Notes under the pieces: model-generated | What the model was told of the DNA's origin: nothing | Seen by the model: the letters and a program-made list of their open reading frames with translations, nothing else | Databases searched by the model: none | Program-made: the position numbers and the translations under genes | Assembly: GCA_964016885.1 (NCBI GenBank) | Contig: OZ024745.1 | Span: 61,194,001 to 61,258,000 of the forward strand | Reading direction: 5' to 3' | Source: Eledone cirrhosa | Taxonomy: Eukaryota | DNA length: 64,000 nt | Part shown: positions 1 through 59,046 of the stretch, one piece after another | Numbering within the stretch: position 1 is the stretch's first letter | Layout of the letters: each line of letters starts with the position of its first letter

Positions 1-1052
1 GAACCATTGATTCAGCTAGCGATAATCCGGTGTAGGGGACGGCTGCCTCTTCTACCAATGATACGTCCGGAACGAAGTTGTAGGCGACTTTGAAGGCTAG
101 AGCGTCCACAAGCGCCTCTTCTACATATCCCGGCTCTATGTTTCTTGAATCAATGAATCTCTTGTCCTTGTTCAGACATCCAATCATTCCATAAAACGTG
201 TGCAGGTAAGGGTTCGATCCCACAGAGAAGACACACTTATCTATCAGTCCCAAGGACTTCTGATAAGGGAAAATCCCTGTTTCCGAAGCTCCTGCATTTA
301 GGGACCTCAACATTCTCGTTATTTCGTTCGCCCCGGCTTCATTTATCATTAGGTAAAGCAGATCGGAGATGGTCAAATTAAGAATATTCATGAAGTGATT
401 CAGAACTTCGATTATGTGCATGCCTTCGTATCGGGCCAGTATAGTTCCTCTTCGCAGTAATGACAAGTCATGTGCATTATAGTTACCTGAAATGATCATT
501 TTTCACAATATGACTCAGGAAGCCGTTAAGAAGCATATCCTGATCATACCGATAAGGATGTGTCATCCTATAATTGTTAAAAGTTTTTATTATATTCTGT
601 TTATAGTCGCCGACTTCCAGACTTGTCCCCGCATTTACTACCTTATAAAGGGTGACGATATAAAGTAGTAGTCCGAGATGGTGATTTTGAGTGGACGTTG
701 TTGCGGTGGGTGTGGGGAAGCTGGAATTCTCGGTGATGGTGAAGAAGTCTGCAGGAGTGACTGTATTCTTTTGTCGAATAAAACTGTAATTCTGCAGATC
801 AGCATTAATATCGAATTTTAGATAAGACTGGCAATACCTGATCATGAAGTGTAAGATGTGTTTTGGTAGAATTTCTTGTGTGTTTGCCTTGGTTTGAATG
901 AAGTCGTGAGCCGCGTTAACATCTCCCCCAGAGAAGATGGTTACTTGCTGGGGCTGAAAGGATTCAGAATTAAAAACGTCAAAGTCCTTAGTCGTCTTGC
1001 TAAGGCTAAATTTCAGCTCCTCATGACCAGTGGAATTGGAAGAATTAGACAT
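1..1052 (-). pseudogene. Endogenous rhabdovirus-like (Mononegavirales) nucleoprotein N gene, frameshifted near 483, running off the window start
   Basis: The 189-aa ORF 1052-483 ends ..KNDHFR*. Manual translation of the shifted frame from 481 to 1 is open: YNAHDLSLLRRGTILARYEGMHIIEVLNHF..EAGANEITRML..GIFPYQKSLGLIDKCVFSVGSNPYLHTFYGMIGCLNKDKRFIDSRN. This is colinear with vesiculovirus N motifs RYGTIVSRFKDC, SYMPYLIDFGLSSKSPYSSVKNPAFH and RSTRARNAR. It is intronless and more GC/CpG-rich than the host introns. Confidence 0.85.
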
Positions 1053-2009
1053 AATGGATTGAAGGATTATAAAGACAACAGTAAAATACGATAAATCCGT
1101 GTTGTCTAATTATTAACATTAAATGTTAATGGTAAGTGTTGTAAGAATAGCTGTGGACGAAGCTATTATGGTAGTTTACCAGAGCTGGCAAGAAGATGAT
1201 GGGTAGGCGAGGAAATGTTGGCCTCCCAGATGTATTGCCGAATGTGCTAGGGAGCTAGGAAAAAATGGCCGGCCGCTTTGATAAGAAAAAAAGCAAGCTG
1301 AGCGATATCCAATTTTAGCCGCTTACTACAATGTATGAGGCTATTCCAACAAATTTACATTCCCCTTTTTTTAGCCGTTAAAAGAAATATAGATTTATGC
1401 CGCTTACTTGCTGTAGTTGCTGCTTACTTCAATGTATGAGGCTATTCCAACAAATTTACATTCCCCTTTTTTTAGCCGTTAAAAGAAATATAGATTTATT
1501 TATTGTTTTTTTTTTGCGATTTATTTGCTACTGGGGCATAGATTTCTTTATTTGCCCCTTCTTTGTTTGTTTTTTTGCGATTTATTAGCCTTTTGGGGTC
1601 ACACACACCCCCGTAGAAAGTGTGCGACCTTTCTGCCAGGGAGCACAGAGAGAGGGGGGGTGCTCCCTTCTTCTCTTACCTGTACAAGCCGATATAGAGA
1701 GATGGCCCACTTACACGGGCCATTATTGCTACTTTCACCCATCTTTCATGGAATTGGCTGGGACTGAGTGCCTTTTTCTCCACCTTGATCCTTCTTTCGA
1801 AGTGGTATCGGAAGAAGAGGACCATTTGTTGGCCGGCGACATATCCCCACAGTTTCCTCGTTGCAAACGCATCTGGGACATTTCTTTTCCAAGGGGTTTC
1901 CGTCCCGGAATCCGTGTCTGTAGAGCCTTTCCCGAACGGGCAGGGCCCCTCGGTATAATAGTAAGTATTAGTGGTTGTAATAAAAATGCAATCAAAATGT
2001 AATAAATAC

Positions 2010-2145
2010 CTCCACTGATTTCTTTCCTTATATTATCAACAGAAGTTGGTATGTCACCCAAAGTTCGCTTTGTATGTTCCCGAATAGCAGTGAATTTTGA
2101 TAAAACTGTTTCTAATTCCTTCTCCAGAGTAAGACAAATATCCAT
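2010..2145 (-). pseudogene. RMND5: Captured first coding exon of an RMND5-like gene (left arm, inverted copy)
   Basis: Reverse complement of 2319-2454 with a few substitutions (R/K, E/G) and the same GTATTT donor. Confidence 0.75.
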
Positions 2146-2318
2146 GTGTAGTCCAAAAAGATATAAATCTTTAAAAAAATTATAATAATTCTTTATTATT
2201 ATTTTCTTTTTCTGTAAATAATTATTTTTCTATATATCTCAAACCCTGCCAAACACCACATCTGTCTATCTGTAAATTTAAATGACTGTTCTTTCATACT
2301 TATCCTCTTCAACTACAC

Positions 2319-2454
2319 ATGGATATTTGTCTTACTCTGGAGAAGGAATTAGAAACAGTTTTATCAAAATTCACTGCTATTCGGGAACATACAAAGCGAA
2401 CTTTGGGTGACATACCAACTTCTGTTGATAATATAAGGAGAGAAATCAGTGAAG
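2319..2454 (+). pseudogene. RMND5: Captured first coding exon of an RMND5/GID2-like CTLH E3 ligase gene (right arm copy)
   Basis: MDICLTLEKELETVLSKFTAIREHTKRTLGDIPTSVDNIRREISE resembles the vertebrate RMND5A N-terminus (MDQCVTVERELEKVLHKF..). It ends at a phase-1 donor GAAG|GTATTT, after which the similarity stops. Confidence 0.75.
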
Positions 2455-3179
2455 GTATTTATTACATTTTGATTGCATTTTTATTACAACCACTAATACT
2501 TACTATTATACCGAGGGGCCCTGCCCGTTCGGGAAAGGCTCTACAGACACGGATTCCGGGACGGAAACCCCTTGGTAAAGAAATGTCCCAGATGCGTTTG
2601 CAACGAGGAAACTGTGGGGATATGTCGCCAGCCAACAAATGGTCCTCTTCTTCCAATACCACTTCGAAAGAAGGATCAAGGTGGAGAAAAAGGCACTCAG
2701 TCCCAGCCAATTCCATGAAAGATGTGTGAAAGTAGCAATAATGGCCCGTGTAAGTGGGCCATCTCTCTATATCGGCTTGTACAGGTAAGAGAAGAAGGGA
2801 GCACCCCCCTCTCTCTGTGCTCCCTGGCAGAAAGGTCGCACACTTTCTACGGGGGTGTGTGTGACCCCAAAAGGCTAATAAATCGCAAAAAAACAAACAA
2901 AAAAGGGGCAAATAAAGAAATCTATGCCCCAGTGGCAAATAAATCGCAAAAAAAAAACAATAAATAAATCTATATTTCTTTTAACGGCTAAAAAAAGGGG
3001 AATGTAAATTTGTTGGAATAGCCTCATACATTGAAGTAAGCAGCAACTACAGCAAGTAAGCGGCATTTAGGCCGCTAAAATTGGATATCGCTCCCGATTC
3101 GAACATTCCAAATGTTAAGCCACTCCACATAGCCATTAAAACGAATGGCGAATTCAAATAGGCTGCGTTTTCATACCTA

Positions 3180-3431
3180 ATCACGTCGGGTCACCAATTT
3201 AGCAGAGAGTTATATTTTGAGAGTTGTAATGTCGCCACGAGGAACCATCTTTGGTAGAAAGATATGATAGGAATATCGACAATGACTTTAGCTTGTTTTA
3301 CATAATTTATTAACAAAGGTTAAGAAGTGAATTAAGCTGGCATGCCAGAATAATGAAATAATTCAATTAAGATTACAAGAGAAAATACGGTCGTTTGGCC
3401 AGGTCCGTAGTAAAATTGTTGTGTCGTTACA
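3180..3431 (-). mobile_element. LTR (3431-3198) plus tRNA-Trp primer-binding site (3196-3180) of a Gypsy-like retrotransposon
   Basis: The minus strand begins TGTAACG, contains AATAAA and ends ..CTGCTAAA (degenerate CA end). One nt later comes TGGTGACCCGACGTGAT, the complement of the tRNA-Trp 3' end with one C lost. Confidence 0.7.
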
Positions 3432-3850
3432 TATTGTTCCTCCTCCTCATCATCATCATCATCATCCTTCTTCTTGAGAGGGTTGTGGCGGGCAGAGTCC
3501 TCAAATACTCCTTCGAGTAGGTTCTGTCAGAACCAACCATCTTGCTCGAGGTCTGCCCCTAGGTCTCTTGCCCATAAAATCTGTCCAGCGATTCTTTCCT
3601 GAGACATTGAGACATTCTAACCACATTTTTATTTTATTTATTTTTTATCGGAGGTGGAGTGGGGTAAAATAAAAGAAATTATGTTTAAAAAGATTGTTTG
3701 AATGTTTATATCTTCATGTCTTCAATATTACATACCACAAAACAGAATTGTATTTTTATCCTCTGAAACATAACTTTAAAACAGTGAATATTATGATGAA
3801 GAGATTGCAAGAATTAGTGTCTTTTCATGGTTCTGATATTTTCTTCCCAG

Positions 3851-3978
3851 AGTGCCGACAGATTCTTCTTCCTATGATCTTGACTCACACATCTGAACTG
3901 CTGAACAACAAACGAGAAATGCCAGAATGTGCCAATGTTCTCAGTGATATCTTGGACAATTTCTACTGCACAAGAAAT
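3851..3978 (+). CDS. DOCK1: DOCK exon ([25 protein letters not shown])
   Basis: CCCAG acceptor, GTAATT donor; resembles DOCK1 DCREILLPMM. Confidence 0.9.
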
Positions 3979-6900
3979 GTAATTTATTTATTTGTTTTTA
4001 CTAAAATCTTTTAATTGTACAGTAATTCTTGCTTACATTGCATATTTTTCTGGACGTAGGATTCCAACATCATCATCGTCATCTTAATATCAGCTTTCTC
4101 TGCTAGCAATGGTTGGGAGAACATCCAGCTGTAAAATATTGTCTGAAAACATTCCATCCAACCCATACCAACATGGAAAAATGTACATTAAATGGGTGAT
4201 GATGATGATGATGATGATACACATTTCTGTCTAATAAATATTTTAATTTGCTAGAATCTAACATGTTATTGTAAACTAATCTACTCTGCTGAAGATGAAC
4301 TACCTGCAATTTTTGATGTTGAAAATGATTCACTTAACCATTTAGCATTTAAACCAGCCATATCGGCAAGAATTCTCTCACCTATTTCTATTCAAACCTG
4401 CTGTAACTGGCCGCTCATACTGTTCTCAAAATAAATAATATCAAAATCTCATAGATTCGATATTATGTGAGGTAAAGCCTTTACCGAGAAAATATAATAG
4501 TAAATATAGAGTAATGTAAATCCTAAAGGGTTAAACAGTATAATTTAGTACAGTACATGACTTTATCCACAACAGATTTACTTAATGCACAAATGTCTGA
4601 TTTAATCTACATGTAAAAATAATGTATGGTAAAATAAGTTAATTTGTTGAATTTGTATTTTTTTTTTATATTTTTGTTTATATTTTTTTTATAGGTTGAG
4701 GATTTGTCAATAATGATACAAAAGATATTCAGAACAGTAATTCAAACAATTATTCAGATGGATTGGGCCAAAGTTCTTGTGGTATGTTCTAACCATTGTA
4801 TTATACTTTAATGTGCACAGACACCAGTATAGACTGGTCATTTTTACTTTTTTACTATTTCAAATTGACCCCCCACACACACACACACAATATCCACAAC
4901 AATAAAGATGGTTAATTTTGTCTATTGGTAGTGTGTGCATTTGTCAGGTAAGAAAGGGCTAATGTCGCTATGAAACTTTGTATCCCGTGCCAGCATAATT
5001 AAAACCACTTGCCCAAAATTAGCAAGTTGGAGGTCTTTATTGTTATTATTATTGGCAGAGTCTGTAGAGCGTCGGCCACCATGCTTCGCGGCATAGAGTT
5101 ACGGCCCTTTACTTTCTGAGTTCTAATCCCGCCAAGGTTAGCTTTGGCTTTCATCCTTACTGGGTCAATAGAATAAAGTACCAGTAATGCACTGGTGTCG
5201 ATTTAATCAACTTTCCTCTCCCTCAAAATTGTTGGCCATGTGCTTAAATCAGAAACAATTTTTATTATTATATTTTCAAGGGTGGTGGATTGGCAGTATC
5301 GGTAGAGGGTCGGACACCATGCTTTGCAGCAAAGAGTTACGGCCCTGTATGGTCTGAGTTCAAATCCCGCTGAGGTTAACTTTGCCTTTCATCCTTATGG
5401 GGTCGATAAAATAAAGTACCAGTAATACACTGGGATAATTGCTGGCCTTGTGCCAAAAGTAGAAACAATTATTATATTTTCATCTGAGGAGGAAAGGCGG
5501 TGTTCAATACTTACCATATGTACTCGAATATAAGTCGACAGTCCCCACCACCACCATTTTATATCTGAGAAATGAGCAAAAATCTAAACCCTGTGTATAA
5601 GTTGAGGCAACTAATCAACAGATTACATTTAAATGTCTCAGCTTTCAAATTCTCCTGAGAATATATTTATGAAGTTTTAATATTTTGATGTATAAAATGT
5701 TTTAAGTGTTGTTTAGTATATAGTGTTTGTTTCACAACTCTATTAGATAGTAATTTTTTACTAATTTCCATGTGTTTTAAAAGCTATATTTATTCAAAAG
5801 CCATATTTATTCATAGCACATAAAAAAGCAATAGGGAAAATAATTTCACCTTTAAAGCAAAAATATTTTAGCAATCTCATTCATGTAGAATTTGAAGTTG
5901 GTGAAAATCACCAAAATATTGACCTCGAATATAATTCCCCCTCCCCATTTTACCATTGTTTTACCATTGTTTTTTGTCACATATTTCTCAGCTTATATAT
6001 GAGAATATACAGTATGTAGCTGCTACAAAATTAGTGCCCTTGATAGAATTGATGTTCTTAGGAAAAGTTGTGTCTGACACACTAGTGTGGTATGCAGGAG
6101 GAAGATCTGCATCTCTATACTTCAACATATTCCCACAACTGGTACAGCCAGTCGTTGGGGCGCCGCTCTAGACGCTTTTGCAGTCACAGTTGTTGCCATT
6201 GGTCTTTATTTTCTGTTATACATAGAGGATCTTGGTGTTGTGTTCAGTCCAGTCCAGTCCAGTCTAGTCTCTCTCTATATACTTAATGTTACAGAAATCA
6301 GAGTTAAGTATCTGCTCTTTGTAACCTAATGATTTTTAAACATTTTAACATTTTCGCTACTTTTCTCACCCCCTTTAACAAAACATAATAAGCAAGTCTT
6401 CCCTCAGTAAAGCTAAAGCTTGATGAATATATAAAACAAAATAAATTAAACCCTAGTATCAGATTATGATGATGTCATTGTTTTTACTTTTTATAACTCC
6501 AGGGTAACTACGTTGCGATAATGATGGCCATTCTCAGTCAGATGACTGAGCACCACTACAATGTCTATATTAGTAGCTTTGCTACACGCTTCGATTTGCT
6601 GGACTTCCTCACTGAAATACTCATGATTTTACAGCATTTAATAACAATGAATGTCTACAAAAATGACTGGAATGAAATGATTCTGCATCAGAACAGGTAT
6701 TTAGTTCACAGTTTATTTATTATATTCATAAGTCTTTTAAATTGAAGGTGCATAGCTTAGTGGTTAGAGCGTTGATCACACAATCGTAAGGTTGTAAGTT
6801 TGAATCTAGGACCAAGCTGTGAATTGTGTTCTTGAGCAAGATACATTGTTTCGCGTTTCTCCAGTTCATTCAGCTCTAGAAATGAGTTGCGACACCACTG

Positions 6901-9900
6901 GTGCAAAGCTGTATCAGCCATTACCTTTTCCTTGGACAGCATCAGTGGTGTGGAGAGAGGAGACTAGCATGCATGGGCAATTGCTGGTCTTCCACAAACA
7001 CACCTTGCCCAGGCTTGTGCCTCAGAGGGGGAACTTTCCAGGTGCAAATCTCATGGCCATTCTTGACCAAGGTAAGTGGGGAGGACTACCACGATTATCA
7101 TTGTCATTATTTCACACTTGTTTGATAATACTTTCAATTTCCTTAATCTTCCAACAGCATCATTCTCCGAGCCCTAAGGTTTTTTGCCACTACAATAAAA
7201 AATAAATTTTCTGATCAATTTGAATATGAGGTAAGTATTGGTTTCTTAGATACTTCCATGCTTTTTTTTCTTTCTTCTTCTTTGCCCACTTATTCCTGAG
7301 AGGGTCATAGAGGCAGTCCTGAAACACTCTTTCCAGTGGGTCCTGTCAGAAGCAACCATCTCCAACTGATCCTGCTGGATCAGTTGGAAATGTTTTTTTT
7401 TGTGTGTGTGTTAGTTTTATTTCTTGCAAAATAGCAATCAGTTAAGATCATCAATCAGGTGTTAAAGATTCTTCCCCAACAATATGCAACTGTCCAGATT
7501 TGACAAAATCCATACCAACTACGCTTGCATGGAAATATAGATGTAAAACAATAATAAAATAAATTGAAAAGAAAATTGAAGTAAGATATAGAAAAAGCTG
7601 AAATCTGCATAGTATCCATATATTTCATTTCTGCATGCTCTCCTATTACCATAATCTTTCCTATACAGCCAAATTTGCTCTTATATTTTTTTATTTCTTA
7701 ATTTTGTTTTTATCTGTTTTTAATATTTTCATCATTGTATAACCTTTGTTCAATAAATTTAATAAAATGAAAAAAATAAATTATTATAATTTATAGTGTG
7801 AAAAAGTTCCATTCACTATAGAGAGATTTTTTAAAAAATTATTTCGCTGTCTTCTTTATACTTTGCTAGAGTCTATTTAGCAGTTGTACTTAAGAGCCTT
7901 TATTCTTGAAAATTGTTGTCTTAATTAAACCATTTCAATATAAGGATATCTCACCTGCATTACATCCATGTTTATTTAGTGAAGAAGAGAATGGAGCTGT
8001 GTGACAGCTCAGTAAATAGTGTAAAGCATGCAAGCTTAGACACATGAACAGCACCAGTCATATGTATCTTTTGACAATATGCAGCAGTTTCAAAGAATTA
8101 TGTCTTGTAGTATCTAGAAGAAGTTTCTATAAAACCACATATCTCTCTTATTTATTGAGCTATATGTTTTAAAATTTGTTTTTAAACCTTTAGTTTTGAA
8201 CCTGTCTCAAACCGGCTCTGGTTTTATGAAATATAACCACCCATTTTAAAGGTTTCCAGTTTAAATTAAAATCTTCCAACATAATTTTATGTAAGAATCT
8301 TACATTAAGTTACTATCTTAATAATGAAATAATTAATAATATTAGTAAATCTCTCAAAATTCTTCATTAGTTAATTAAAATAGTGTATTTCATTAGAAAT
8401 GTGTTCATGAAAGGATTAAATCATCTGGTAATGTTTTCCCTGAATAACCATAAATAACAAAAGAATTTTATCTCTAAAATGAGAATACCTTTCTCCTTAA
8501 TGTGACCTCATATTATTGTTTTGATGCATCAACTTATATAGATAAAACAATCTCTTTGGGATTGAGTTATTTTCTCTCATTCAATCCAAGAGTGATATTG
8601 GTCTGCTATTTTAAATCCTTTTTATAGCAAACCATCAGAAACTGGACCTATTTCTCTGATATAAAACTGCTTATTTTAAAACATTTATATTTATCTAAAA
8701 TCTTTCTTTCATAATTTTATGTAAGAACCTTTGTTAAGTTATGTTTCAAACACCACATTAGTAATGAGAAAGTTAACTATTTTAATGGATCTCTTCAAAT
8801 CTTTTATTATTTTTCAAATTATTGGCAGTGTCTTTCATTAGAATATGATAATGGAACTGTTAAACTGTTATATATTTTAAAAACAAAAAACAAATATACT
8901 GTTAAATATCAGACAAATTTGATAAAATTATTCATTTTATTTCATTGGTTATTTCAGCTGTGGAATGGATTTTTCTTCTGTGCTGTCTCATTCCTTACAC
9001 AAAAGCCATTGCAACTGGAGAAATTTTCTCCCAATAAAAGAAGTAAAATTATAGCCAGGTAAGAAGATTCTAACCAAGGATACTTCTAAGCATATTCATG
9101 TTTAACTTTTAATATCCTGTACCACATGAAACTGCATTTGTAAGATATTCTTTAAAAGTACAAATAAACATTATGATGGCATCAATTATTAAATTTTGCC
9201 AATCTATCTCTGGCAAAATTTTATTTTAAGTTGTAGCATTCCTGTAACAGTTATTTTCTTTATACATTAAAAAATCATTATACATGACCAAAAAAAGTAC
9301 ATTACAAGAAATCTGATACATTTTAAAATAAATAGGATGTGTTGGAGTCTCAATATGCAAAATAAATGACTAATTCTGTTTTTTTTTTTAAAATCAACAG
9401 AGACAGCCTATGAAATTACCGATTTTCAACCCCCCTCATTATTTGGAACCCGAAAGTACTTGTTGCATTATTTCATCATCTCCTCAATGAGGTTCAATAT
9501 TCTGAGATCTGCTTTCACCACTTCTGTCCAAGTTTTTCTCAGTCTTCCTCTTCTGCAACTTTATTAAATTAATAAGTGATATATTTCCATTATTATCATC
9601 ATTTAATTTCCCCTACTGGTAAAGGTTGAACCAATTTATCAGAGACCAAGTCAGAACTTAATTGGAGCTACTGACTTCTCAGAAGAGCCAGAAGCCCTCT
9701 TCTTACTTACAGACATTTCTGCACTCTTCATAGTGCACCAAGTGCATTTCATTGTGGCACAAGCACTAGGATAGTTGTTATATCTATGACACATCTAAAG
9801 AGTCCTCTCTGCTCTGTTTGGCAGGTTTTCTACAGCTAGAGGCCCTTCCTATTTCTTCAAATCTCAAAAATAGTTTTAAAATATATACCATGAAAGCATG

Positions 9901-26000: not shown

Positions 26001-28714
26001 TCTTTAATAATAAACTATTTATTTATACTTTTGTTATTGATGATTTATACTGCAGTAGCTAATTACATCTCTTTTGTCTTATATCAGAAACGCCAGAATC
26101 CACCAGTGATGATTCAGATTGCTATGGCGAACCACCGCCGCTCCCGGAAAAGCTAACGTTTGCTGACTATACTAATACCATGGGAGAGGACTCCCCAATA
26201 ATTTCTCATCGTCTAATCAATTTAGTTGGACCTAAGAATAAAGTAAGATCAATTGGAGTACTTAGCCATTTGATGACTGCATTTCTAATGAAATATGCTC
26301 TATTTCAATTAATTAATGATAATTTTGAAATTTTGAAAATTATTAATTATTTCATTACTAAGATTGTAACTTATTAAATATTATCATCATCATCATCTTC
26401 GTTTAACGTCCATTTTTCACGCTAGCATGGGTTAGACGGTAGTTGTCCCACTTGAGGCAAGGTTGGTCGGGTGACCGTGTCTCACTCATATAGGACTATC
26501 TGGCAGGTTTTCTACGGCTGGATGCCCTTCCTAACACCAACCACATTTACAGTGTGGAACTGGGAACTTTTTACCGTGTTACCTACACAGCCACATTACA
26601 GCGTGGACTGTGTGTTTTTTTTGTCGTGACACCTACATTATCTCATTTATTTGGACTGGATGTTGTGGTACCAACTTTACAGAGAGAGGGTGGTGTTGGT
26701 GGGAGTGGGAGGATAGGGTAGGGGTAGTGGATTGTGGTGTAAATTTGGTTAAGAGGTGCCTACTGACTGTAGATTTCGCTTTGTACATAGGCAAGACGAG
26801 TCTTCTGTATTACTGCATAGCACCAAAGATCTCGGTCCAGTGACATTGTCTTAGAGAGGTGCAAGTGTGTAAGGTCAGAATTTATCAGATCATCCCAGGT
26901 TTTTCTGGGTCTGCCTACTCTGTAACTACCATCAATTTTGATCGCCCTGCACTTTTTTATGCAGCTGTCTTTCATGCGCATCACGTGGCCATACCAACGT
27001 AGTCTTCTCTCAAGTAAACAGCATCTGATCCCTCTTATTCCTAATTTCTCATTTAGTTCATTTATGCTTTGCCGTTCACGTATATTACTATTACACATCT
27101 AACGGAGGATGCATGCTTCATTCCTTTCCAGTCTGCGCAGGTCCTCTGCACGTAATGCCCATGTCTCACTGCCATGTAGCATTGCTGTTCGTATACAAGC
27201 ATCTGCCTTTCATTTTTAAAGAGAAACCGTTTGTGGCCAACAGCGGTATAAGCCCTCTGAACTTTTTCCATCCCGTTCTGACTCTGGCTACTGTACTTTC
27301 AGAACACCCTCCTCCACTGCTGATTTTGTCACCCAGGTAACGGAAAGTGTCTACTATTTCTATAGAACCATCTGGGCAATAGAAGGAGCTAGTATCCTGT
27401 GGACACCTGCTACCTATTGCACCTGAGCATCAGCCACATATAAAGTCTACGTTCTTAGATAGTTTACCTGTGATCCCACTACATCTTTTATGTACCCATA
27501 CTTTGCATTTGGGACATAAAATTGAATTTCTGCCTACTCATTTCCTACACACTGAGCATGGCTATTTCCCTGAGGGTACCTGTGCCTTATTTTCCTTTCT
27601 ACAAACTAGGACTTTAGTCTTAGACAAGTTAACTTTAAGGCCTTAAGGGGTATTTAATTTGTCTATTTATAAAAGAAACTTTGTATTTTATCTGATGAAA
27701 GCGTACCAATGTTGTCTTGGTACCCTAGAAATATATATAATAAAATAAATAAGGTTTTATAAATATAGTTTCCATTTATTTAATATCATTGTATATATAC
27801 ATTTATATATATATATATATATATATATATCATCATCATCATTTTACGTCCACTTTTCCCTGCTTGCAAAGGTGGGACGGGAACTGATTCTGGCTTGATT
27901 TCTACAGCTGGATGCCCTTCCTAATACCAACCTCATTTACAGTGAGTGCTGGGTTCTTTTTTGCCATGGCACCTCCACGACCACTTTGCAGTGGAATGAT
28001 ATGGACCCCAGTCCCTATCATCTCATTTCTACAGCTGAGTAAACTGGAGCAATGTGAAATAAAGTGTCTTGCTCAAGGAAACAACACATCACCCGGTCTG
28101 AGAATTGAACTCACAACCTTTCAATTGCAAGGCCAATGCTCCAATCACTAAGCCATGTGCCTCCATATATACATATATATAATACACCATTGGGTAGAAC
28201 TGGTGGTTCTGGTTGGTAAATCATGCTGTAACAAATCAGTGAAAGCAGTGTTATGCAAGTCATCCATTGTAGATGTGGTATCCAGTGGTTGGTGCAAGAT
28301 CGGAGTTAAGTATTTATTTGGCCGGACTGGAAAATTTCCTTTGAAATTTTAATTCCGTGAAATCACTATACATATTTCGATGGCCCAGCTCCATCAGCTG
28401 ATTATGATGCAAGACAGGATTATCTCGTCAGGCGACTTCCACAGAATTACTTAACAGGGTTACATTGAACCCAAACATATAATGGAAATAGGGAAAAAAG
28501 AATAGAAAATTGAAAATTCGATTCAGGGACTGCCTGTAAAAAATCTGTTGTCTTGGTAAGAGGCAGTCATATTTATATTCATAGATATGTGTGTGTTATT
28601 TATTAACTTATATAAAGCTGATTGTTTTAATTTATTTTGCAGCTTCCTCCTCCAATTCCAGTTGAAGAAGAAATAATACCACCTGTACCAAGAAAGCCAC
28701 CACTTCCACGATAG
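3851..28714 (+). CDS. DOCK1: Dedicator of cytokinesis, DOCK-A subfamily (DOCK1/DOCK180/myoblast city-like) Rac GEF; 3' 27 exons (~996 codons: ARM region, DHR-2, Pro-rich tail); 5' exons lie upstream of the window
   Basis: AG/GT-bounded, phase-consistent exons: 3851-3978, 4695-4781, 6503-6696, 7158-7230, 8958-9058, 10060-10118, 10377-10448, 11175-11275, 11812-11897, 13000-13156, 13875-14006, 14625-14744, 15480-15569, 15731-15835, 16751-16837, 17679-17733, 17984-18065, 18153-18225, 19364-19450, 19555-19728, 20389-20481, 21315-21446, 22765-22868, 24189-24417, 24559-24700, 26088-26242, 28643-28714. Motifs: [89 protein letters not shown]. Confidence 0.95.
4335..4534. mobile_element. piggyBac-type MITE family A; related copies near 35911-36128, 56718-56905 and 62670-62860
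   Basis: TTAA-CCATTTAGCATTTA ... TAAATCCTAAAGGG-TTAA termini; the same body recurs in both orientations. Confidence 0.65.
4695..4781 (+). CDS. DOCK1: DOCK exon ([22 protein letters not shown]..)
   Basis: ATAG acceptor, GTATGT donor, phase-consistent. Confidence 0.85.
5050..5470 (+). mobile_element. Two tandem tRNA-derived SINEs with a Deu/Nin-like core; further copies ~17297, 33445(-), 34775, 35005, 37415, 41230, 42175(-), 51590, 53110, 54640(-), 63358, 63590
   Basis: A-box-like TGGCAGTATCGG, B-box GAGTTCAAATCC, core GCCTTTCATCCTTACGGGGTCGATAAAATAAAGTACCAG. Confidence 0.85.
5512..6014. mobile_element. Degenerate Tc2/pogo-like MITE
   Basis: TA-CCATATGTACTCGAATATAAGTCGA ... CAGCTTATATATGAGAATATACAG-TA imperfect TIRs. 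Confidence 0.5.
6503..6696 (+). CDS. DOCK1: DOCK exon ([28 protein letters not shown])
   Basis: CCAG acceptor, GTATTT donor. Confidence 0.92.
6745..7075 (+). mobile_element. tRNA-derived SINE with a CORE-like segment
   Basis: TAGCTTAGTGGTTAGAGCG A-box head, degenerate B box, TGTGTTCTTGAGCAAGATAC core. Confidence 0.7.
7158..7230 (+). CDS. DOCK1: DOCK exon ([13 protein letters not shown])
   Basis: ACAG acceptor, GTAAGT donor. Confidence 0.9.
8958..9058 (+). CDS. DOCK1: DOCK exon ([24 protein letters not shown]..)
   Basis: TCAG acceptor, GTAAGA donor; conserved FLTQxxLQLE. Confidence 0.93.
10060..10118 (+). CDS. DOCK1: DOCK exon ([19 protein letters not shown])
   Basis: TTAG acceptor, GTATGT donor; conserved YxDMRR..MW. 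Confidence 0.93.
10377..10448 (+). CDS. DOCK1: DOCK exon ([23 protein letters not shown])
   Basis: GTAG acceptor, GTAAGT donor. Confidence 0.93.
10785..11040. repeat. Minisatellite, ~24-bp unit TACCTATACTTACTACCTATA(C/A)AG
   Basis: Directly visible tandem array; explains the repetitive ORFs. Confidence 0.9.
11175..11275 (+). CDS. DOCK1: DOCK exon ([17 protein letters not shown]..)
   Basis: TCAG acceptor, GTAAAT donor; hallmark DOCK-A/B motif. Confidence 0.95.
11812..11897 (+). CDS. DOCK1: DOCK exon ([22 protein letters not shown]..)
   Basis: TTAG acceptor, GTAAGT donor. Confidence 0.93.
13000..13156 (+). CDS. DOCK1: DOCK exon (..[28 protein letters not shown])
   Basis: CTAG acceptor, GTAAGT donor. 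Confidence 0.93.
13380..13720 (-). mobile_element. RTE-clade LINE fragment, second family; its 3' ends also occur at ~3470, 7285, 10165, 38910-39165 and 59165-59340
   Basis: [44 protein letters not shown] is a typical RTE ORF2 C-terminal segment. Confidence 0.8.
13875..14006 (+). CDS. DOCK1: DOCK exon, start of DHR-2 ([23 protein letters not shown]..)
   Basis: ACAG acceptor, GTGAGT donor. Confidence 0.95.
14065..14520 (-). mobile_element. tRNA-derived SINE with V-domain-like segment and internally repeated 3' part; + copies at 16198-16490 and 31218-31460
   Basis: CCCTGCGATGGACTGGTGTCCTGTCCAGGG motif; head GTGGCCTAGTGGTAAGGGTG seen in the + copies. Confidence 0.75.
14625..14744 (+). CDS. DOCK1: DOCK exon ([22 protein letters not shown])
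   Basis: TCAG acceptor, GTAAGG donor. Confidence 0.93.
15480..15569 (+). CDS. DOCK1: DOCK exon ([30 protein letters not shown])
   Basis: TTAG acceptor, GTATGT donor. Confidence 0.95.
15731..15835 (+). CDS. DOCK1: DOCK exon ([24 protein letters not shown])
   Basis: ATAG acceptor, GTTTGT donor. Confidence 0.95.
16751..16837 (+). CDS. DOCK1: DOCK exon ([22 protein letters not shown])
   Basis: TTAG acceptor, GTAAGT donor. Confidence 0.95.
17679..17733 (+). CDS. DOCK1: DOCK exon ([18 protein letters not shown]) followed by a U12 intron
   Basis: ACAG acceptor, GTATCCTTT donor. Confidence 0.9.
17734..17983 (+). other. U12-type (minor spliceosome) GT-AG intron
   Basis: 5' site GTATCCTTT; branch-site-like TTCTTTAAC ending ~10 nt before the CAG; no polypyrimidine tract; splicing restores SPKQ-Y-LQINAV. 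Confidence 0.9.
17984..18065 (+). CDS. DOCK1: DOCK exon ([17 protein letters not shown])
   Basis: ACAG acceptor, GTAAGT donor. Confidence 0.9.
18153..18225 (+). CDS. DOCK1: DOCK exon ([15 protein letters not shown]..)
   Basis: ACAG acceptor, GTAAGT donor. Confidence 0.92.
18740..19250. mobile_element. Tail-to-tail pair of Meta-domain-like SINEs with RTE-type (GAT)n tails; other copies 21620-22000, 23060-23290, 47240-47480
   Basis: AGGAAGGGCATCCAGCCGTAGAAAC-type core, CCCATGCTAGC..GGACGTTAAACGATGATGAT tail. Confidence 0.7.
19364..19450 (+). CDS. DOCK1: DOCK exon ([24 protein letters not shown]..)
   Basis: ATAG acceptor, GTAAGT donor. Confidence 0.95.
19555..19728 (+). CDS. DOCK1: DOCK exon with nucleotide sensor ([29 protein letters not shown])
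   Basis: ACAG acceptor, GTAAAT donor. Confidence 0.95.
20389..20481 (+). CDS. DOCK1: DOCK exon ([20 protein letters not shown])
   Basis: GTAG acceptor, GTAATT donor. Confidence 0.9.
20985..21213. mobile_element. piggyBac-type MITE family B (~230 bp); copies ~8185, 8610, 12404, 20068, 26263, 30182-30500, 32634, 55160
   Basis: TTAA-CCCTTT ... ATAGGG-TTAA termini; shared body CATTTCTAATGAAATACACTCTATTT. Confidence 0.75.
21315..21446 (+). CDS. DOCK1: DOCK exon, end of DHR-2 ([23 protein letters not shown]..)
   Basis: CTAG acceptor, GTAAGA donor. Confidence 0.92.
22765..22868 (+). CDS. DOCK1: DOCK C-terminal tail exon ([16 protein letters not shown]..)
   Basis: ATAG acceptor, GTAAGT donor, phase fits both neighbours. 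Confidence 0.8.
24189..24417 (+). CDS. DOCK1: DOCK tail exon ([18 protein letters not shown])
   Basis: TTAG acceptor, GTTTGT donor. Confidence 0.85.
24559..24700 (+). CDS. DOCK1: DOCK tail exon ([18 protein letters not shown]..)
   Basis: CCAG acceptor, GTAATT donor; LTPKRPLR recalls invertebrate mbc. Confidence 0.88.
24905..25095. repeat. 18-bp tandem repeat TCTGTCTTTTCTCCTTCC (~10 copies)
   Basis: Directly visible array. Confidence 0.95.
26088..26242 (+). CDS. DOCK1: DOCK tail exon with Crk-SH3-type motif PPPLPEK
   Basis: TCAG acceptor, GTAAGA donor. Confidence 0.88.
26384..27645 (-). mobile_element. 5'-truncated RTE LINE copy, same family as 47639-50319
   Basis: Near-identical to ~47640-48880 including the 3' UTR and (GAT)n tail; contains frameshifts. 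Confidence 0.92.
27686..27745 (+). ncRNA. Minimal type I hammerhead ribozyme motif (Penelope-associated type)
   Basis: TTTTAT-CTGATGA-stem II (GTACCA..TGGTAC)-GAAA-palindromic TATATA-TA-ATAAAA; stem I TTTTAT/ATAAAA. Confidence 0.6.
28643..28714 (+). CDS. DOCK1: DOCK terminal coding exon ([23 protein letters not shown])
   Basis: TGCAG acceptor, Pro-rich SH3 ligands, TAG stop at 28712-28714. Confidence 0.88.
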   Translation, partial: LPPPIPVEEEIIPPVPRKPPLPR

Positions 28715-42010: not shown

Positions 42011-43132
42011 GGCCAGGACCCAGAGACAAATATAAGTTAGTTGGAAGTGGAGGATACTCAATGGGATTTTGAAACACACAGTTGAAGAAAGAGAGTGTGT
42101 GTGTGTGTGTTAATATTAACAGATCTTGTCATACTAATTCAGACCAACAAACTAAATAATAATAATAAAAATAATGGTTTCTGATTTAGGCACAAGGTCA
42201 GCAAATTTTGGGGAAGGAGACAGACGATTAAATCGACCCTAGTGCGTGACTAGTACTATGTTTTATCGAGACCGTGAGGATGAAAGGCCAAGCTAATCTC
42301 GAAGAATATTTTCTTTATTAGCCACAAAGGGTTTACAAAAAATACATTAAAAGGACAACACAGGACGGTACAATACGGGTTTCTCCGTGTAAAAATAAAC
42401 ATAATAATAATAATTCTTTCTACTAACAATAAAAATACACAAATAACGAACGAATTTTGTATCACATTAATGCTGCTTTGTATAAACAGAATTTATCAAA
42501 CGTCGAAATTGCTCAGCTGCAGCTTGATAGATTACGCAGCAAATAAAAGTTCGGCAGAATTAGTTGTCTAAATATTGATACGGACATGGACATTTCGATT
42601 CCAAAATTTTTCTTTTTCAGTTTCAAATTTTAGGTTGATAATATTTGAGGAATTGTTGCAAATCACGAGAAGAGAAAGGATGAAAAGAAAGAAAAAAAAT
42701 CAATTTTAATTTTTTTATTTATTTTAAACTGAAATTGAAAAATCAAAATCGAATCGAAATCGAATATATTGAAATTGAAATTTGAATCGATAATAAATTC
42801 CAGTTTTTAAAGAATTTCAGTTCCGGTTCAAATTTTGGTTTAACTTTATTTTTTTTCACGTTTTACTTTTAATTATGAAAATTTAAAATACTATTTTTAA
42901 TTGTCAATTAAGCTTCTTTAAAAACATGGAATGAAGTCTGTCAACTCTCTCTCTCTCTTTCTCTGTTATTAAGGAACTTCCTGGTTATATAATTTACATA
43001 AATTATATTCTTTAATTCACAGAAACCAGTAAGTAACACTATTTACGATCTGTTTTACACTGAAGTTGAGCTCTCTATTACATATTTTTGTCTGTTAACC
43101 ATTTCTATAGAATTTCTTCTGCATTGTTTAAT

Positions 43133-44950
43133 ATGGGACGTCACAGAACTAATGAAGCATATTCATATTTTACAATCGTTGGTTCTCGTGAAAACGCAAT
43201 AGCAGCCTGTAATGTAATGGGTTGCACTATGGCTTTGAGGCATCCTTGTGCTACTAATCTAATGAAACATCTGGAGAGACACCATAAAGCAGAATTTGAA
43301 ATTTTAGCTCGAAGACGAGAAGCTTTAGCTGCAACAGGGAAAAGATTACTCATGCTAGTCGAAAATAAAACTCCAGATTACAACCAAGCTAAGGTTTCAA
43401 AAAATGTTAATGACTTACATGGTGGTTTAACAATAAACATCCCAATGAATATAAAAACTTTTAATAATGCTATGATTGAGTTGGTGACTATGAATGGGAG
43501 ACCCTTTTCTGCAGTAGAAGACAGTGGATTATGTAAATTGATTGATCCAATTAAAAGAGCACTTAACACAGAAATGGATCGGAAGAAAATTTCCAATTTA
43601 ATTGATGAAAAAGCTGCAGAAATTGTAAATCAGATAAGTGAAGAACTTCAAAACAGAATGTTTTCTTTGAAAATTGACATAGCATCTCATCTAGATCAAA
43701 CTGTGTTGGCACTTAATGCTCAAGCCATTATTAAAGACACTCTTCAAATAAGAACACTAGCTGTTACAAACTTCTCTTCAGCTTATACAGGTGAAAATAT
43801 CAAAGAAATAGTTATAAATGTGTTGTCGAAATACAGCTTAAGTTTAAATCAAGTATATTCTATCACTGTTGATTGTGCTAGAAAGGATGAAGAAACTGAA
43901 ATTACCAGTGAAGAAAGTGATATAAGTAAAGTGGAGGACATAAAAATAGGCAGTGGTTTTTTTGTGAAATGTGCAGCTCATGCTTTACAACTTGCAGTAA
44001 AAGATGCACTCCAGGGAGAACTGTATGCTAACACTATATCTCATGCTAGAAATATATCTAAAATGTTGTGTAATCCAGTTGTAATGAATATTTTAAAGGT
44101 ACAAAAATATTGTATGCCTACTGTAGACGTGATGACACAATGGTGTTCTACATATGAAATGATTACCCGTTTAATGGAACTTCGACCGTTTATTGAAGAG
44201 TTTGTTGAAATAACTGGAATCAACTTGAAAGTTTCTCTTCAGTATTGGGTACAATTACAAGAAATAATGCACGTATTAGAACCGGCTAAAAAAACTGTAG
44301 TACGATTACAAGAAGAAAACTTGATTCCAGGAGATTTCTATAAAGTGTGGTTTGTTTGCAAAAGTGAAATTTCAAAAATTGAATGTACGTTGGCTAACAA
44401 CGTCATAGAAGCAATGAATGCCAGGGAAAATGAACTTCTTAAAAATGAAATAATATTAGCATCATTATATTTAGATCCTAGATTTAGTGTTATGTTATCT
44501 GAAGCAGATGAAGAACGAGCAATAAGCCATTTAATCAGACTTCATGGAGCATTGAGTGCAATGTATCCAAAACCTGAGCATAAAGTAGTTCCATATGAGA
44601 TGGTATCTGCTACAACAGAAAATGAATTAGAAAATATGCTTAGATTTGCTGCACAAAGCAAGAAAAATATAAATGCCACAAAAAAATCCATCTTATCATC
44701 TTTGAGAGACTTTTCATATACTGAAAGAATTCCTCCAGATAGTTGTTTAATTTCTTGGTGGAACACAATGAAAATAAAGTATGAAGACTTATATAAATTG
44801 GCTATTGTTGTGCATGCTGTTCCAATGACACAAATCAGTGTGAAACGGTTATTTTCTATTTTTGAAACGATTTTAAGTCCACAAAAAGACAATTTACTGC
44901 ATGAAAACATTGAGAATATTTTAATAGTTCATACTAATTTCAACATATAA
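43133..44950 (+). CDS. hAT transposase-derived BED zinc-finger protein (ZBED-like), 605 aa from the first ATG, probably domesticated
   Basis: Uninterrupted ORF. N-terminal BED finger (YSYF..CNVMGC..TNLMKHLERHH), RPFSAVEDSG, SLKID, ITVD, CAAHALQL, YLDPRF, C-terminal hAT dimerisation motif (WW..YEDLYKLA..VPMTQISVKRLFS). Splice acceptor TTTCTATAG at 43110. Confidence 0.88.
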   Translation: MGRHRTNEAYSYFTIVGSRENAIAACNVMGCTMALRHPCATNLMKHLERHHKAEFEILARRREALAATGKRLLMLVENKTPDYNQAKVSKNVNDLHGGLTINIPMNIKTFNNAMIELVTMNGRPFSAVEDSGLCKLIDPIKRALNTEMDRKKISNLIDEKAAEIVNQISEELQNRMFSLKIDIASHLDQTVLALNAQAIIKDTLQIRTLAVTNFSSAYTGENIKEIVINVLSKYSLSLNQVYSITVDCARKDEETEITSEESDISKVEDIKIGSGFFVKCAAHALQLAVKDALQGELYANTISHARNISKMLCNPVVMNILKVQKYCMPTVDVMTQWCSTYEMITRLMELRPFIEEFVEITGINLKVSLQYWVQLQEIMHVLEPAKKTVVRLQEENLIPGDFYKVWFVCKSEISKIECTLANNVIEAMNARENELLKNEIILASLYLDPRFSVMLSEADEERAISHLIRLHGALSAMYPKPEHKVVPYEMVSATTENELENMLRFAAQSKKNINATKKSILSSLRDFSYTERIPPDSCLISWWNTMKIKYEDLYKLAIVVHAVPMTQISVKRLFSIFETILSPQKDNLLHENIENILIVHTNFNI

Positions 44951-58425: not shown

Positions 58426-59046
58426 GGCGATATCCAATTTTAGCTGTCTAAATGCCGCTTACTTGCTGCTTACTTCAATGTATGAGGCTATTCCAACAAA
58501 TTTACATTCTCCCTTTTTTTTAGCCACTTTTTTTTTTTTGCGATTTATTAGAGAGGGGGGGGGGGGCTCCCTTCTTCTCTTACCTGTACAAGCCGATATA
58601 GAGAGATGGCCCACGTACACGGGCCATAATTGCTACTTTCACCCATCTTTCATGGAATTGGCTGTGACTGAGTGCCTTTTTCTCCAAGAGGACCATTTGT
58701 TGGCCGGCGACATATCCCCACAGTTTCCTCGTTGCAAACGCATTTGCGACATTTCTTTTCCAAGGGGTTTCCGTCCCTGAATCCGTGTCTGTAGAGCCTT
58801 TCCCGAACGGGCAGGGCCCCTCGGTATAATAGTAAGTATTAGTGGTTGTAATAAAAATGCAGTAAGAGAAGAAGGGAGCACCCCCCTCTCTAATAAATCG
58901 CAAAAAGAAAAAAAAAAAAATCTATATTTCTTTTAACGGCTAAAAAAAAGGGGGAATGTAAATTTGTTGGAATAGCCTCATACATTGAAGTAAGCAGCAA
59001 CTGCAGCAAGTAAGCGGCATTTAGACAGCTAAAATTGGATATCGCC
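58426..59046. mobile_element. Second, internally deleted copy of the long-TIR cargo element with an 8-bp TSD
   Basis: GTTCCTAG|GGCGATATCCAATTTTAGC ... GCTAAAATTGGATATCGCC|GTTCCTAG; internal ~280 bp nearly identical to 1680-1990. Confidence 0.93.

Follow-up and report, generated by a model that had tools for sequence, protein, structure and literature searches.

A foldback Merlin-type transposon of Eledone cirrhosa with an RMND5 exon in both arms, present in at least 38 copies

A near-perfect palindrome of approx. 1.8 kb lies in an intron of a DOCK-family gene of Eledone cirrhosa, and each of its arms holds the first coding exon of another host gene, RMND5. How does a host exon come to stand twice, in mirror image, in a transposable element, and does the hairpin RNA that a transcript of this locus could form act on the gene from which the exon came? 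The window analysed here is a stretch of 64,000 nucleotides (contig OZ024745.1, positions 61,194,001 to 61,258,000 of the forward strand), and positions are those of the window unless a contig or another locus is named. The reading favoured here, at a probability of roughly 0.8, is that the palindrome is a Merlin element present in at least 38 copies, whose exon was likely captured as DNA, which was likely folded when a copy of its 3' end replaced the 5' end, and whose spread was likely that of a neutral passenger, moved by a Merlin transposase from elsewhere. Hairpin RNA made from DOCK pre-mRNA would then be a by-product. The features to which the argument refers are listed by position and strand.

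1117..1300, no strand: left flank, belonging to an unrelated high-copy repeat
1301..3092, no strand: non-autonomous foldback element, classed as Merlin, with an RMND5 fragment in both arms (from its ends, junction and family comparison)
1301..1398, no strand: left tip, a shortened 25-bp terminal repeat and then an 81-bp stretch that repeats 1419-1499 in tandem (from self-alignment)
1396..2152, minus strand: left arm, an inverted copy of the 3' end of the element, antisense to RMND5 in the DOCK transcript
2004..2145, minus strand: copy of the RMND5 first coding exon (ATG at 2145, 136 nt) with the GTATTT donor and 8 differences from the parent in 135 coding bases
2153..2171, plus strand: start of the spacer, transposon DNA that in relatives lies 3' of the transposase stop codon; turn-round junction
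2172..2502, plus strand: captured RMND5 segment, with 5' flank/UTR (2172-2318), coding exon (2319-2454), donor and approx. 48 bp of intron
2312..3092, plus strand: right arm, the 3' end of the family
2506..2715, plus strand: second cargo, a scrap of the 3' part of a LINE ORF2, mirrored at approx. 1750-1958
3093..3438, no strand: right flank, the same high-copy repeat as on the left
3851..3978, plus strand: DOCK-family exon that closes the 5,075-bp intron; a contig of 7,230 nt in run X4 covers it to the base
58426..59046, no strand: second, shorter family member in the window; its 8-bp target duplication is perfect, and its RMND5 DNA is reduced to 28 bp of intron

The arms of the element are about 98% complementary. 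The main stem pairs 1396-2152 with 2312-3067 with nine mismatches and one 1-bp gap, and blastn of the arms against each other gives 98.3% identity over 767 bp, which bears out the near-identical long inverted arms described in an earlier note on this DNA. The tips (1301-1325 and 3068-3092) pair over 25 bp with two mismatches, and the left arm has in addition the 81-bp tandem copy (1318-1398 versus 1419-1499). Each arm reads, as had been noted, an ATG (2319 on the plus strand, 2145 on the minus strand) that opens 45 codons, one further base, and then GTATTT. The spacer of 159 nt (2153-2311) had been taken for the 5' flank or UTR of the exon; this is correct from 2172 onwards, whereas its first 19 nt or so belong to the transposon. 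The turn-round junction of the window copy has a 3-bp microhomology (AGT). Both ends of this copy read AGCG where the family has GGCG, an A variant seen elsewhere at one end, and the copy has no target duplication. Its LINE scrap gives no Pfam match; a longer version in a relative (L057) matches zf-RVT with an E value of 3.8e-7.

The exon can be assigned to RMND5 because its parent locus was found, the 45-residue peptide alone matching RMND5A (PDB) only at E=0.093 and giving no useful Pfam match. A CTLH-domain search of the animal's own genome led to a locus 18 Mb from the element on its own contig (near G000 C5:79,536,171-79,536,519), in which a downstream exon matches RMND5A with an E value of 1.6e-19. 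Parent and window copy are 88% identical over 354 bp, share 127 of 135 coding bases and agree in 37 of 45 residues; the parental first exon that the earlier note proposed to look for in the genome is thus in hand, and the suggested resemblance of the peptide to RMND5A/Gid2 is upheld. The captured piece comprises 147 bp of 5' flank, the 136-bp exon, its donor and approx. 48 bp of intron, and the retention of donor and intron in the element agrees with the capture at the DNA level that had been claimed. Run X4 contains spliced RMND5 and DOCK contigs as well as element-type contigs, all of them without strand or level; pre-mRNA and DNA carry-over are inseparable in them, and their depths are used neither as expression nor as copy number. 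One of these contigs joins the parent exon directly to the next exon across a 5.7-kb intron. Another carries parent alleles upstream of the ATG, and therefore part of the spacer at least corresponds to 5' UTR. CCAAT and ETS boxes, which we take to be promoter-like motifs, lie in the parent upstream of the captured part and are missing from it.

Among 72 arm rows, the derived codon alleles comprise 31 missense, nine silent and three stop changes, and the silent share expected under neutrality is 21%. Six differences are fixed between the family and the parent, all of them missense (P ~0.23 by chance), a result that neutrality allows but does not predict. Judged by these substitutions, the captured exon is decaying neutrally and gives no sign of protein function.

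The window copy contains no transposase, and the nature of the carrier can be read from relatives with the same ends. Several loci with the exon lie next to matches to DDE_Tnp_IS1595; in L056 and L057, this domain (E ~2e-13) is found directly upstream of the RMND5 piece, and the family is characterized by 8-bp target duplications and GG ends (most family ends begin with GG; L069, L070 and L086 are exceptions at one end). Because these ends and duplications occur together with an IS1595-type transposase in relatives, the carrier is best classed, on its sequence features, as a Merlin (IS1595-type) element, and the label Pack-MULE is wrong: a Pack-MULE has a Mutator-type carrier and a 9-10-bp duplication, whereas the linked transposase here is IS1595-type and the duplications measure 8 bp. 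'Pack-Merlin' would fit. The broader claim of an animal Pack-type transposon survives in part, as a cut-and-paste element with an identifiable parent exon, but has to be amended as to the carrier, the multi-copy family and the recurrence of the palindrome. Described Merlin elements have GG ends, target duplications of 8 or 9 bp and terminal inverted repeats (TIRs) of 24-462 bp (PMC8101967, consulted in part); the TIR of the non-foldback element L057 measures 63 bp, compared with approx. 780 bp for the arms in the window.

In the relatives, the transposase stop codon is followed by approx. 90 bp of element DNA, the RMND5 piece, the LINE scrap and the 3' end. It was considered whether the capture had interrupted the transposase gene; this was rejected, as the gene reaches its stop codon before the cargo begins. 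RMND5-derived DNA is present in all 14 elements in which a close transposase copy was mapped beside the 3' part. Two truncated close transposase pieces (L147 and L148) have no RMND5 DNA and leave room for a cargo-free form that preceded the capture. A full-length transposase was found in none of 13 close elements, the longest frame having 283 aa compared with 338 aa in a relative. Two distant Merlins with long frames (L114 and L119) were rejected as mobilising partners, since their ends differ. An A-rich tract after the third conserved block of the transposase (L055-L118) is of variable length in nearly all copies, often with a shift of the frame; it may be a slippage hot spot or, in part, an assembly error. 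In L056, a 1,685-bp inverted pair (732-2415 and 5816-7500 of that locus, 99.6%) brackets the one-armed RMND5-bearing Merlin and looks by eye like a Penelope-like retroelement.

The exact turn-round junction of the window occurs at 38 places on many contigs (at most one mismatch; none for the reversed control), and the window palindrome is one of at least 38 copies. When spacer and exon were searched together, 40 of 116 candidates scored 96-100%. The exon-core motif occurs at 113 places, which should include the parent, and the end motif at 444; approx. 220 elements have the family ends. Both ends lie within the fetched DNA in 23 of the 33 junction-bearing entries examined: target duplications are complete (8/8 bp) in 12 of these, match at 7/8 bp in four, and are weak or missing in seven, which include the window copy and one tandem pair counted twice. 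Long palindromes can be artefacts of assembly or amplification, and such an origin might be entertained for the window copy, which has no target duplication and is not spanned as a whole by any listed contig. However, 38 dispersed sites have the same junction, their target duplications are distinct, and the arms differ by approx. 1.4%; these sites and duplications demonstrate repeated transposition, so that an artefact is barely conceivable. L062 (C2:221.97 Mb) and L125 (C1:208.67 Mb), on different contigs, share the same 8-bp target duplication, which may reflect chance, target preference or shared descent.

The position of the element in a DOCK intron, as stated earlier, is confirmed: the whole of it is contained in an intron of 5,075 bp (starting at G000 C5:61,192,776), which belongs to a DOCK-family gene on the plus strand, and DOCK is spliced in X4 contigs. 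A strong donor-like site at 2781-2792 (plus strand) lies in the right arm, 3' of the LINE scrap; neither its use nor that of the captured RMND5 donor in DOCK transcripts was seen among the X4 joints listed. In five other copies of the flanking repeat, 1,418-1,453 bp lie between the parts that border the element here, and this DNA is missing at the window site. A deletion next to the element after its insertion is the likely cause of the absent target duplication. The flanking repeat (1117-1300 and 3093-3438; L048-L054) is more than 2 kb long, with 935 candidates that are 86-95% identical. No long reading frame was seen in it; its interior contains exon- and promoter-like stretches, and the repeat may itself capture genes. 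The same intron contains a stretch in two frames (1-1109, minus strand, continuing upstream of the window) that resembles a Rhabdovirus nucleoprotein (PF00945, E 2.2e-14 for 2-502) and runs antisense to DOCK transcription. Positions 900-1177 are covered by one contig in each DNA-like run. By sequence, this stretch is likely an endogenous viral element. That it travels with the flanking repeat was rejected, as it is present in none of four other copies of the repeat.

How the element came to be folded is best seen by comparing its relatives. Two RMND5-bearing elements, L057 and L113, are one-sided, with both ends and a target duplication. RMND5 DNA lies in both arms in eight architectures that differ in their turning points (the window type, C11, L121, L125, L111, L062, L144 and L058). 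In particular, the C11 element (G000 C11:53,551,045-53,554,872; L102/L103) is a full palindrome of 3,828 bp (97.4%) with a perfect target duplication, and it contains two head-to-head transposase copies that share one premature stop. Transposase DNA is found in both arms in L121, L058, L062 and L144 as well. The centre of the C11 palindrome is a 320-bp internal inverted repeat, and L057 has the same repeat near its 5' end. Six other architectures mapped on C11 are colinear with it except for one central deletion each (L144 lay outside this mapping). Two routes fit these structures, namely, a single full palindrome from which central parts were later deleted, or several rounds in which a copy of the 3' end took the place of the 5' end, as has been proposed for the Drosophila foldback Galileo (PMC3573991). 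In a tree of 40 arms from 26 chosen loci, arms group by shared deletions, but only 3 of 37 branches are starred and the bootstrap is unsettled; because of this poor support, one foldback origin and several are not separable. As far as the compared structures go, the palindrome is a recurrent property of this Merlin lineage and not a one-off event.

The near-identity of the arms has a likely explanation of its own. Among 21 copies of the junction type (14,516 columns; the tandem pair L063 left out), 13 changes private to one copy, relative to the 21 sampled, occur in both of its arms and 136 in one arm, whereas approx. 0.1 both-arm changes would be expected by chance. Arms differ by 1.44% within copies and by 1.91% between copies, and the window copy has one private change in both arms, at 2337. 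These both-arm changes suggest that the arms have likely been copied onto each other by conversion, which would keep the stem without selection for function.

The favoured reading joins these observations in a series of steps. It would begin with a transposase-bearing Merlin that holds the RMND5 5' flank, exon and intron start together with the LINE scrap 3' of its stop codon, a structure present in the relatives. The RMND5-bearing end would then have been duplicated in mirror image. The product is seen in the two-armed elements, and the process may have been either the formation of one full palindrome around the 320-bp internal inverted repeat, followed by central deletions, or several separate events of template-switch repair. 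The 1.7-kb form then transposed to dozens of sites, as the target duplications attest, while mutual repair of the arms, to which the shared private changes point, would have kept the stem near-perfect without selection. Finally, the window copy would have lost its target duplication through the adjacent 1.4-kb deletion.

The second question concerns what RNA from these copies might do. The central 866 nt of the element (1800-2665) fold into a single stem with a predicted energy of -672 kcal/mol (z -71), in line with the long-stem folding foreseen in the earlier note; a fold of this kind is what any such palindrome must give. On this prediction, a hairpin RNA from the window copy is plausible, and regulation of RMND5 by it is unsupported. 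An X4 contig of depth 66.9 was considered as a transcript of the element and rejected, since it carries the parent alleles and is RMND5 mRNA. Similarly, a joint at 2152/2310 on 'opposite strands' was rejected as support for the turn, as it represents continuity of the right arm against a half-palindrome.

It may be supposed that intronic copies fold into long dsRNA that is diced into small RNAs, and that these measurably lower RMND5 mRNA. The predicted stem lies wholly inside the DOCK intron; spliced DOCK and RMND5 contigs occur in X4 along with element-type contigs; and all 124 21-mers of the stem match the RMND5 exon with at most two mismatches, 22 of them perfectly in a typical copy. In the window copy, however, only 3 of the 124 are perfect, and RMND5 mRNA sequence makes up only 143 bp of the approx. 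760-bp stem. Moreover, the exon decays neutrally, arm-to-arm copying explains the identity of the arms, and dozens of copies are tolerated. Intronic RNA is usually nuclear and short-lived, which also counts against such dicing. Dicer action against RMND5 is therefore possible but unsupported, and a measurable effect on the mRNA appears improbable. By analogy with Mu killer, silencing of the Merlin family itself would be at least as likely a use of the hairpin RNA. Foldbacks might act mainly against their own family, with hairpin RNA made by read-through silencing the Merlin lineage, above all from forms that have transposase in both arms. The C11 palindrome with its two transposase copies, which by its structure is the best candidate 'killer' allele, would suit this role, as would L121, L058, L062 and L144. 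The window-type stem, however, contains no transposase coding DNA. As the foldback form was itself amplified to 38 copies, any silencing must have been late or weak, and we regard a role mainly in self-silencing as rather unlikely.

In animals, ADAR typically acts on long intramolecular duplexes, and a near-perfect stem of approx. 760 bp within one intron could be a passive substrate that is hyper-edited in DOCK pre-mRNA without effect on RMND5. This proposal is compatible with the favoured reading. Over 2154-6400, the contigs of X4 show A>G changes at 14 places and T>C changes at 19, compared with 12 and 17 in the DNA-like run X1; there is thus no A-to-G excess between these two sets of contigs, a weak objection, since contigs drop rare variants and the individuals are not matched. 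Two changes seen only in X4, at 2664 and 2688, were rejected as editing: on a single contig they point opposite ways, and in three relatives 2688G is present in genomic DNA. ADAR action on the stem is unsupported as it stands, and we would put passive editing at somewhat below even odds. A bolder proposal would make the lineage a mobile hairpin-RNA gene that folds and repairs itself, with dozens of read-through copies giving rise to small RNAs against both the transposase and RMND5, so that, through the exon, silencing the transposon would come at a cost to a host E3-ligase gene. We think this very unlikely; if true, it would be an animal case of conflict between transposon and host over silencing. 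The favoured reading, with hairpin RNA as a by-product, is retained in the comparison with known systems that follows.

As in Pack-TIRs, the element holds, within its TIRs, DNA from an identifiable non-transposon parent, RMND5, and has transposed recurrently with distinct target duplications. In the parts of the relevant survey that were consulted, Ssk-FB4 of Drosophila and Pack-hAT-N8_XT of the frog likewise contain a piece of a host gene whose parent is identifiable; it was captured as DNA, and its further transposition left distinct target duplications (Tan et al. 2021, PMC8277862); the target duplication of FB4 measures 9-10 bp, four of 370 animal Pack-TIRs are multicopy, and one multicopy example has three copies. 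In contrast to the Pack-TIRs described there, the carrier here is a Merlin with at least 38 copies, and its cargo lies inside both inverted arms, not between them, is promoterless and decays neutrally. The word 'Merlin' is absent from the main text of that survey and appears in its supplements only as a column head, in a term search that entries under other element names could escape. Within the Merlin superfamily, the DDE_Tnp_IS1595 transposase, 8-bp duplication and GG ends are shared, and very long arms are known from zebrafish, in which Merlin-1_DR and Merlin-N5_DR have TIRs of 1000 bp (PMC8101967, consulted in part). Merlin elements are abundant in Octopus bimaculoides. Unlike those of described Merlins, the arms here include DNA of a host exon and have formed more than once, with turning points that differ; the main text of the same paper, as far as consulted, makes no mention of foldback or gene capture.

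The Drosophila foldback Galileo has also recruited internal sequence to lengthen its terminal repeats, for which recombination or conversion has been proposed (PMC3573991, consulted in part). Galileo belongs to the P superfamily, and no host exon is described in that portion of the source, whereas the recruited part here includes the host cargo and, in a single copy, the entire transposase gene. The maize loci Mu killer and Ac killer each consist of one transposon end in inverted duplication and can yield hairpin RNA when read through from a host gene (PMC3440606; 10.1101/2020.01.07.897926; both seen in part). The window locus resembles them in that a long inverted repeat lies within one transcription unit, the 5,075-bp DOCK intron. 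They are, however, loci with demonstrated silencing, whereas the palindromes described here are mobile, multi-copy, carry host DNA and are at most candidates for silencing. Literature searches that combined Pack-TIR with Merlin, or RMND5 with transposon and inverted repeat, found no paper; those on octopus Merlins, covering titles and the starts of abstracts, gave no gene-carrying Merlin, and those on foldbacks and hairpins listed nothing closer.

Each ingredient is known; what is new is their combination, in which a Merlin carries a host exon in both arms, exists in at least 38 copies, and shows repeated foldback along with measurable copying between its arms. DNA transposons that carry genes are seldom multicopy in animals, going by the four Pack-TIRs in the consulted parts of PMC8277862, and none was found described for Merlin. 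Moreover, one genome has kept the intermediates side by side: the one-armed form with transposase and cargo, the full palindrome, seven other turning points, short derivatives, and arms that bear the marks of copying. The lineage offers ready material for testing how foldback elements arise and what keeps their arms identical. With approx. 110 genomic copies of a host coding exon, many of them as hairpins, toleration versus dicing becomes testable.

Several further observations concern other elements. In a different Merlin family, L060 (G000 C1:45.54 Mb) and L059 (C28:102.76 Mb) contain inverted pairs of transposase frames, the arms of L060 being 97-98% identical over approx. 1.1 kb, which suggests that foldback is common among the Merlins of the Eledone cirrhosa genome. 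In the window itself, a 626-aa open frame at 43070-44950 (plus strand) appears by eye to be a hAT-family transposase or a domesticated derivative, and frames at 47986-50325 and 26760-27098 (both minus strand) look, again by eye, like the reverse transcriptase of non-LTR retrotransposons.
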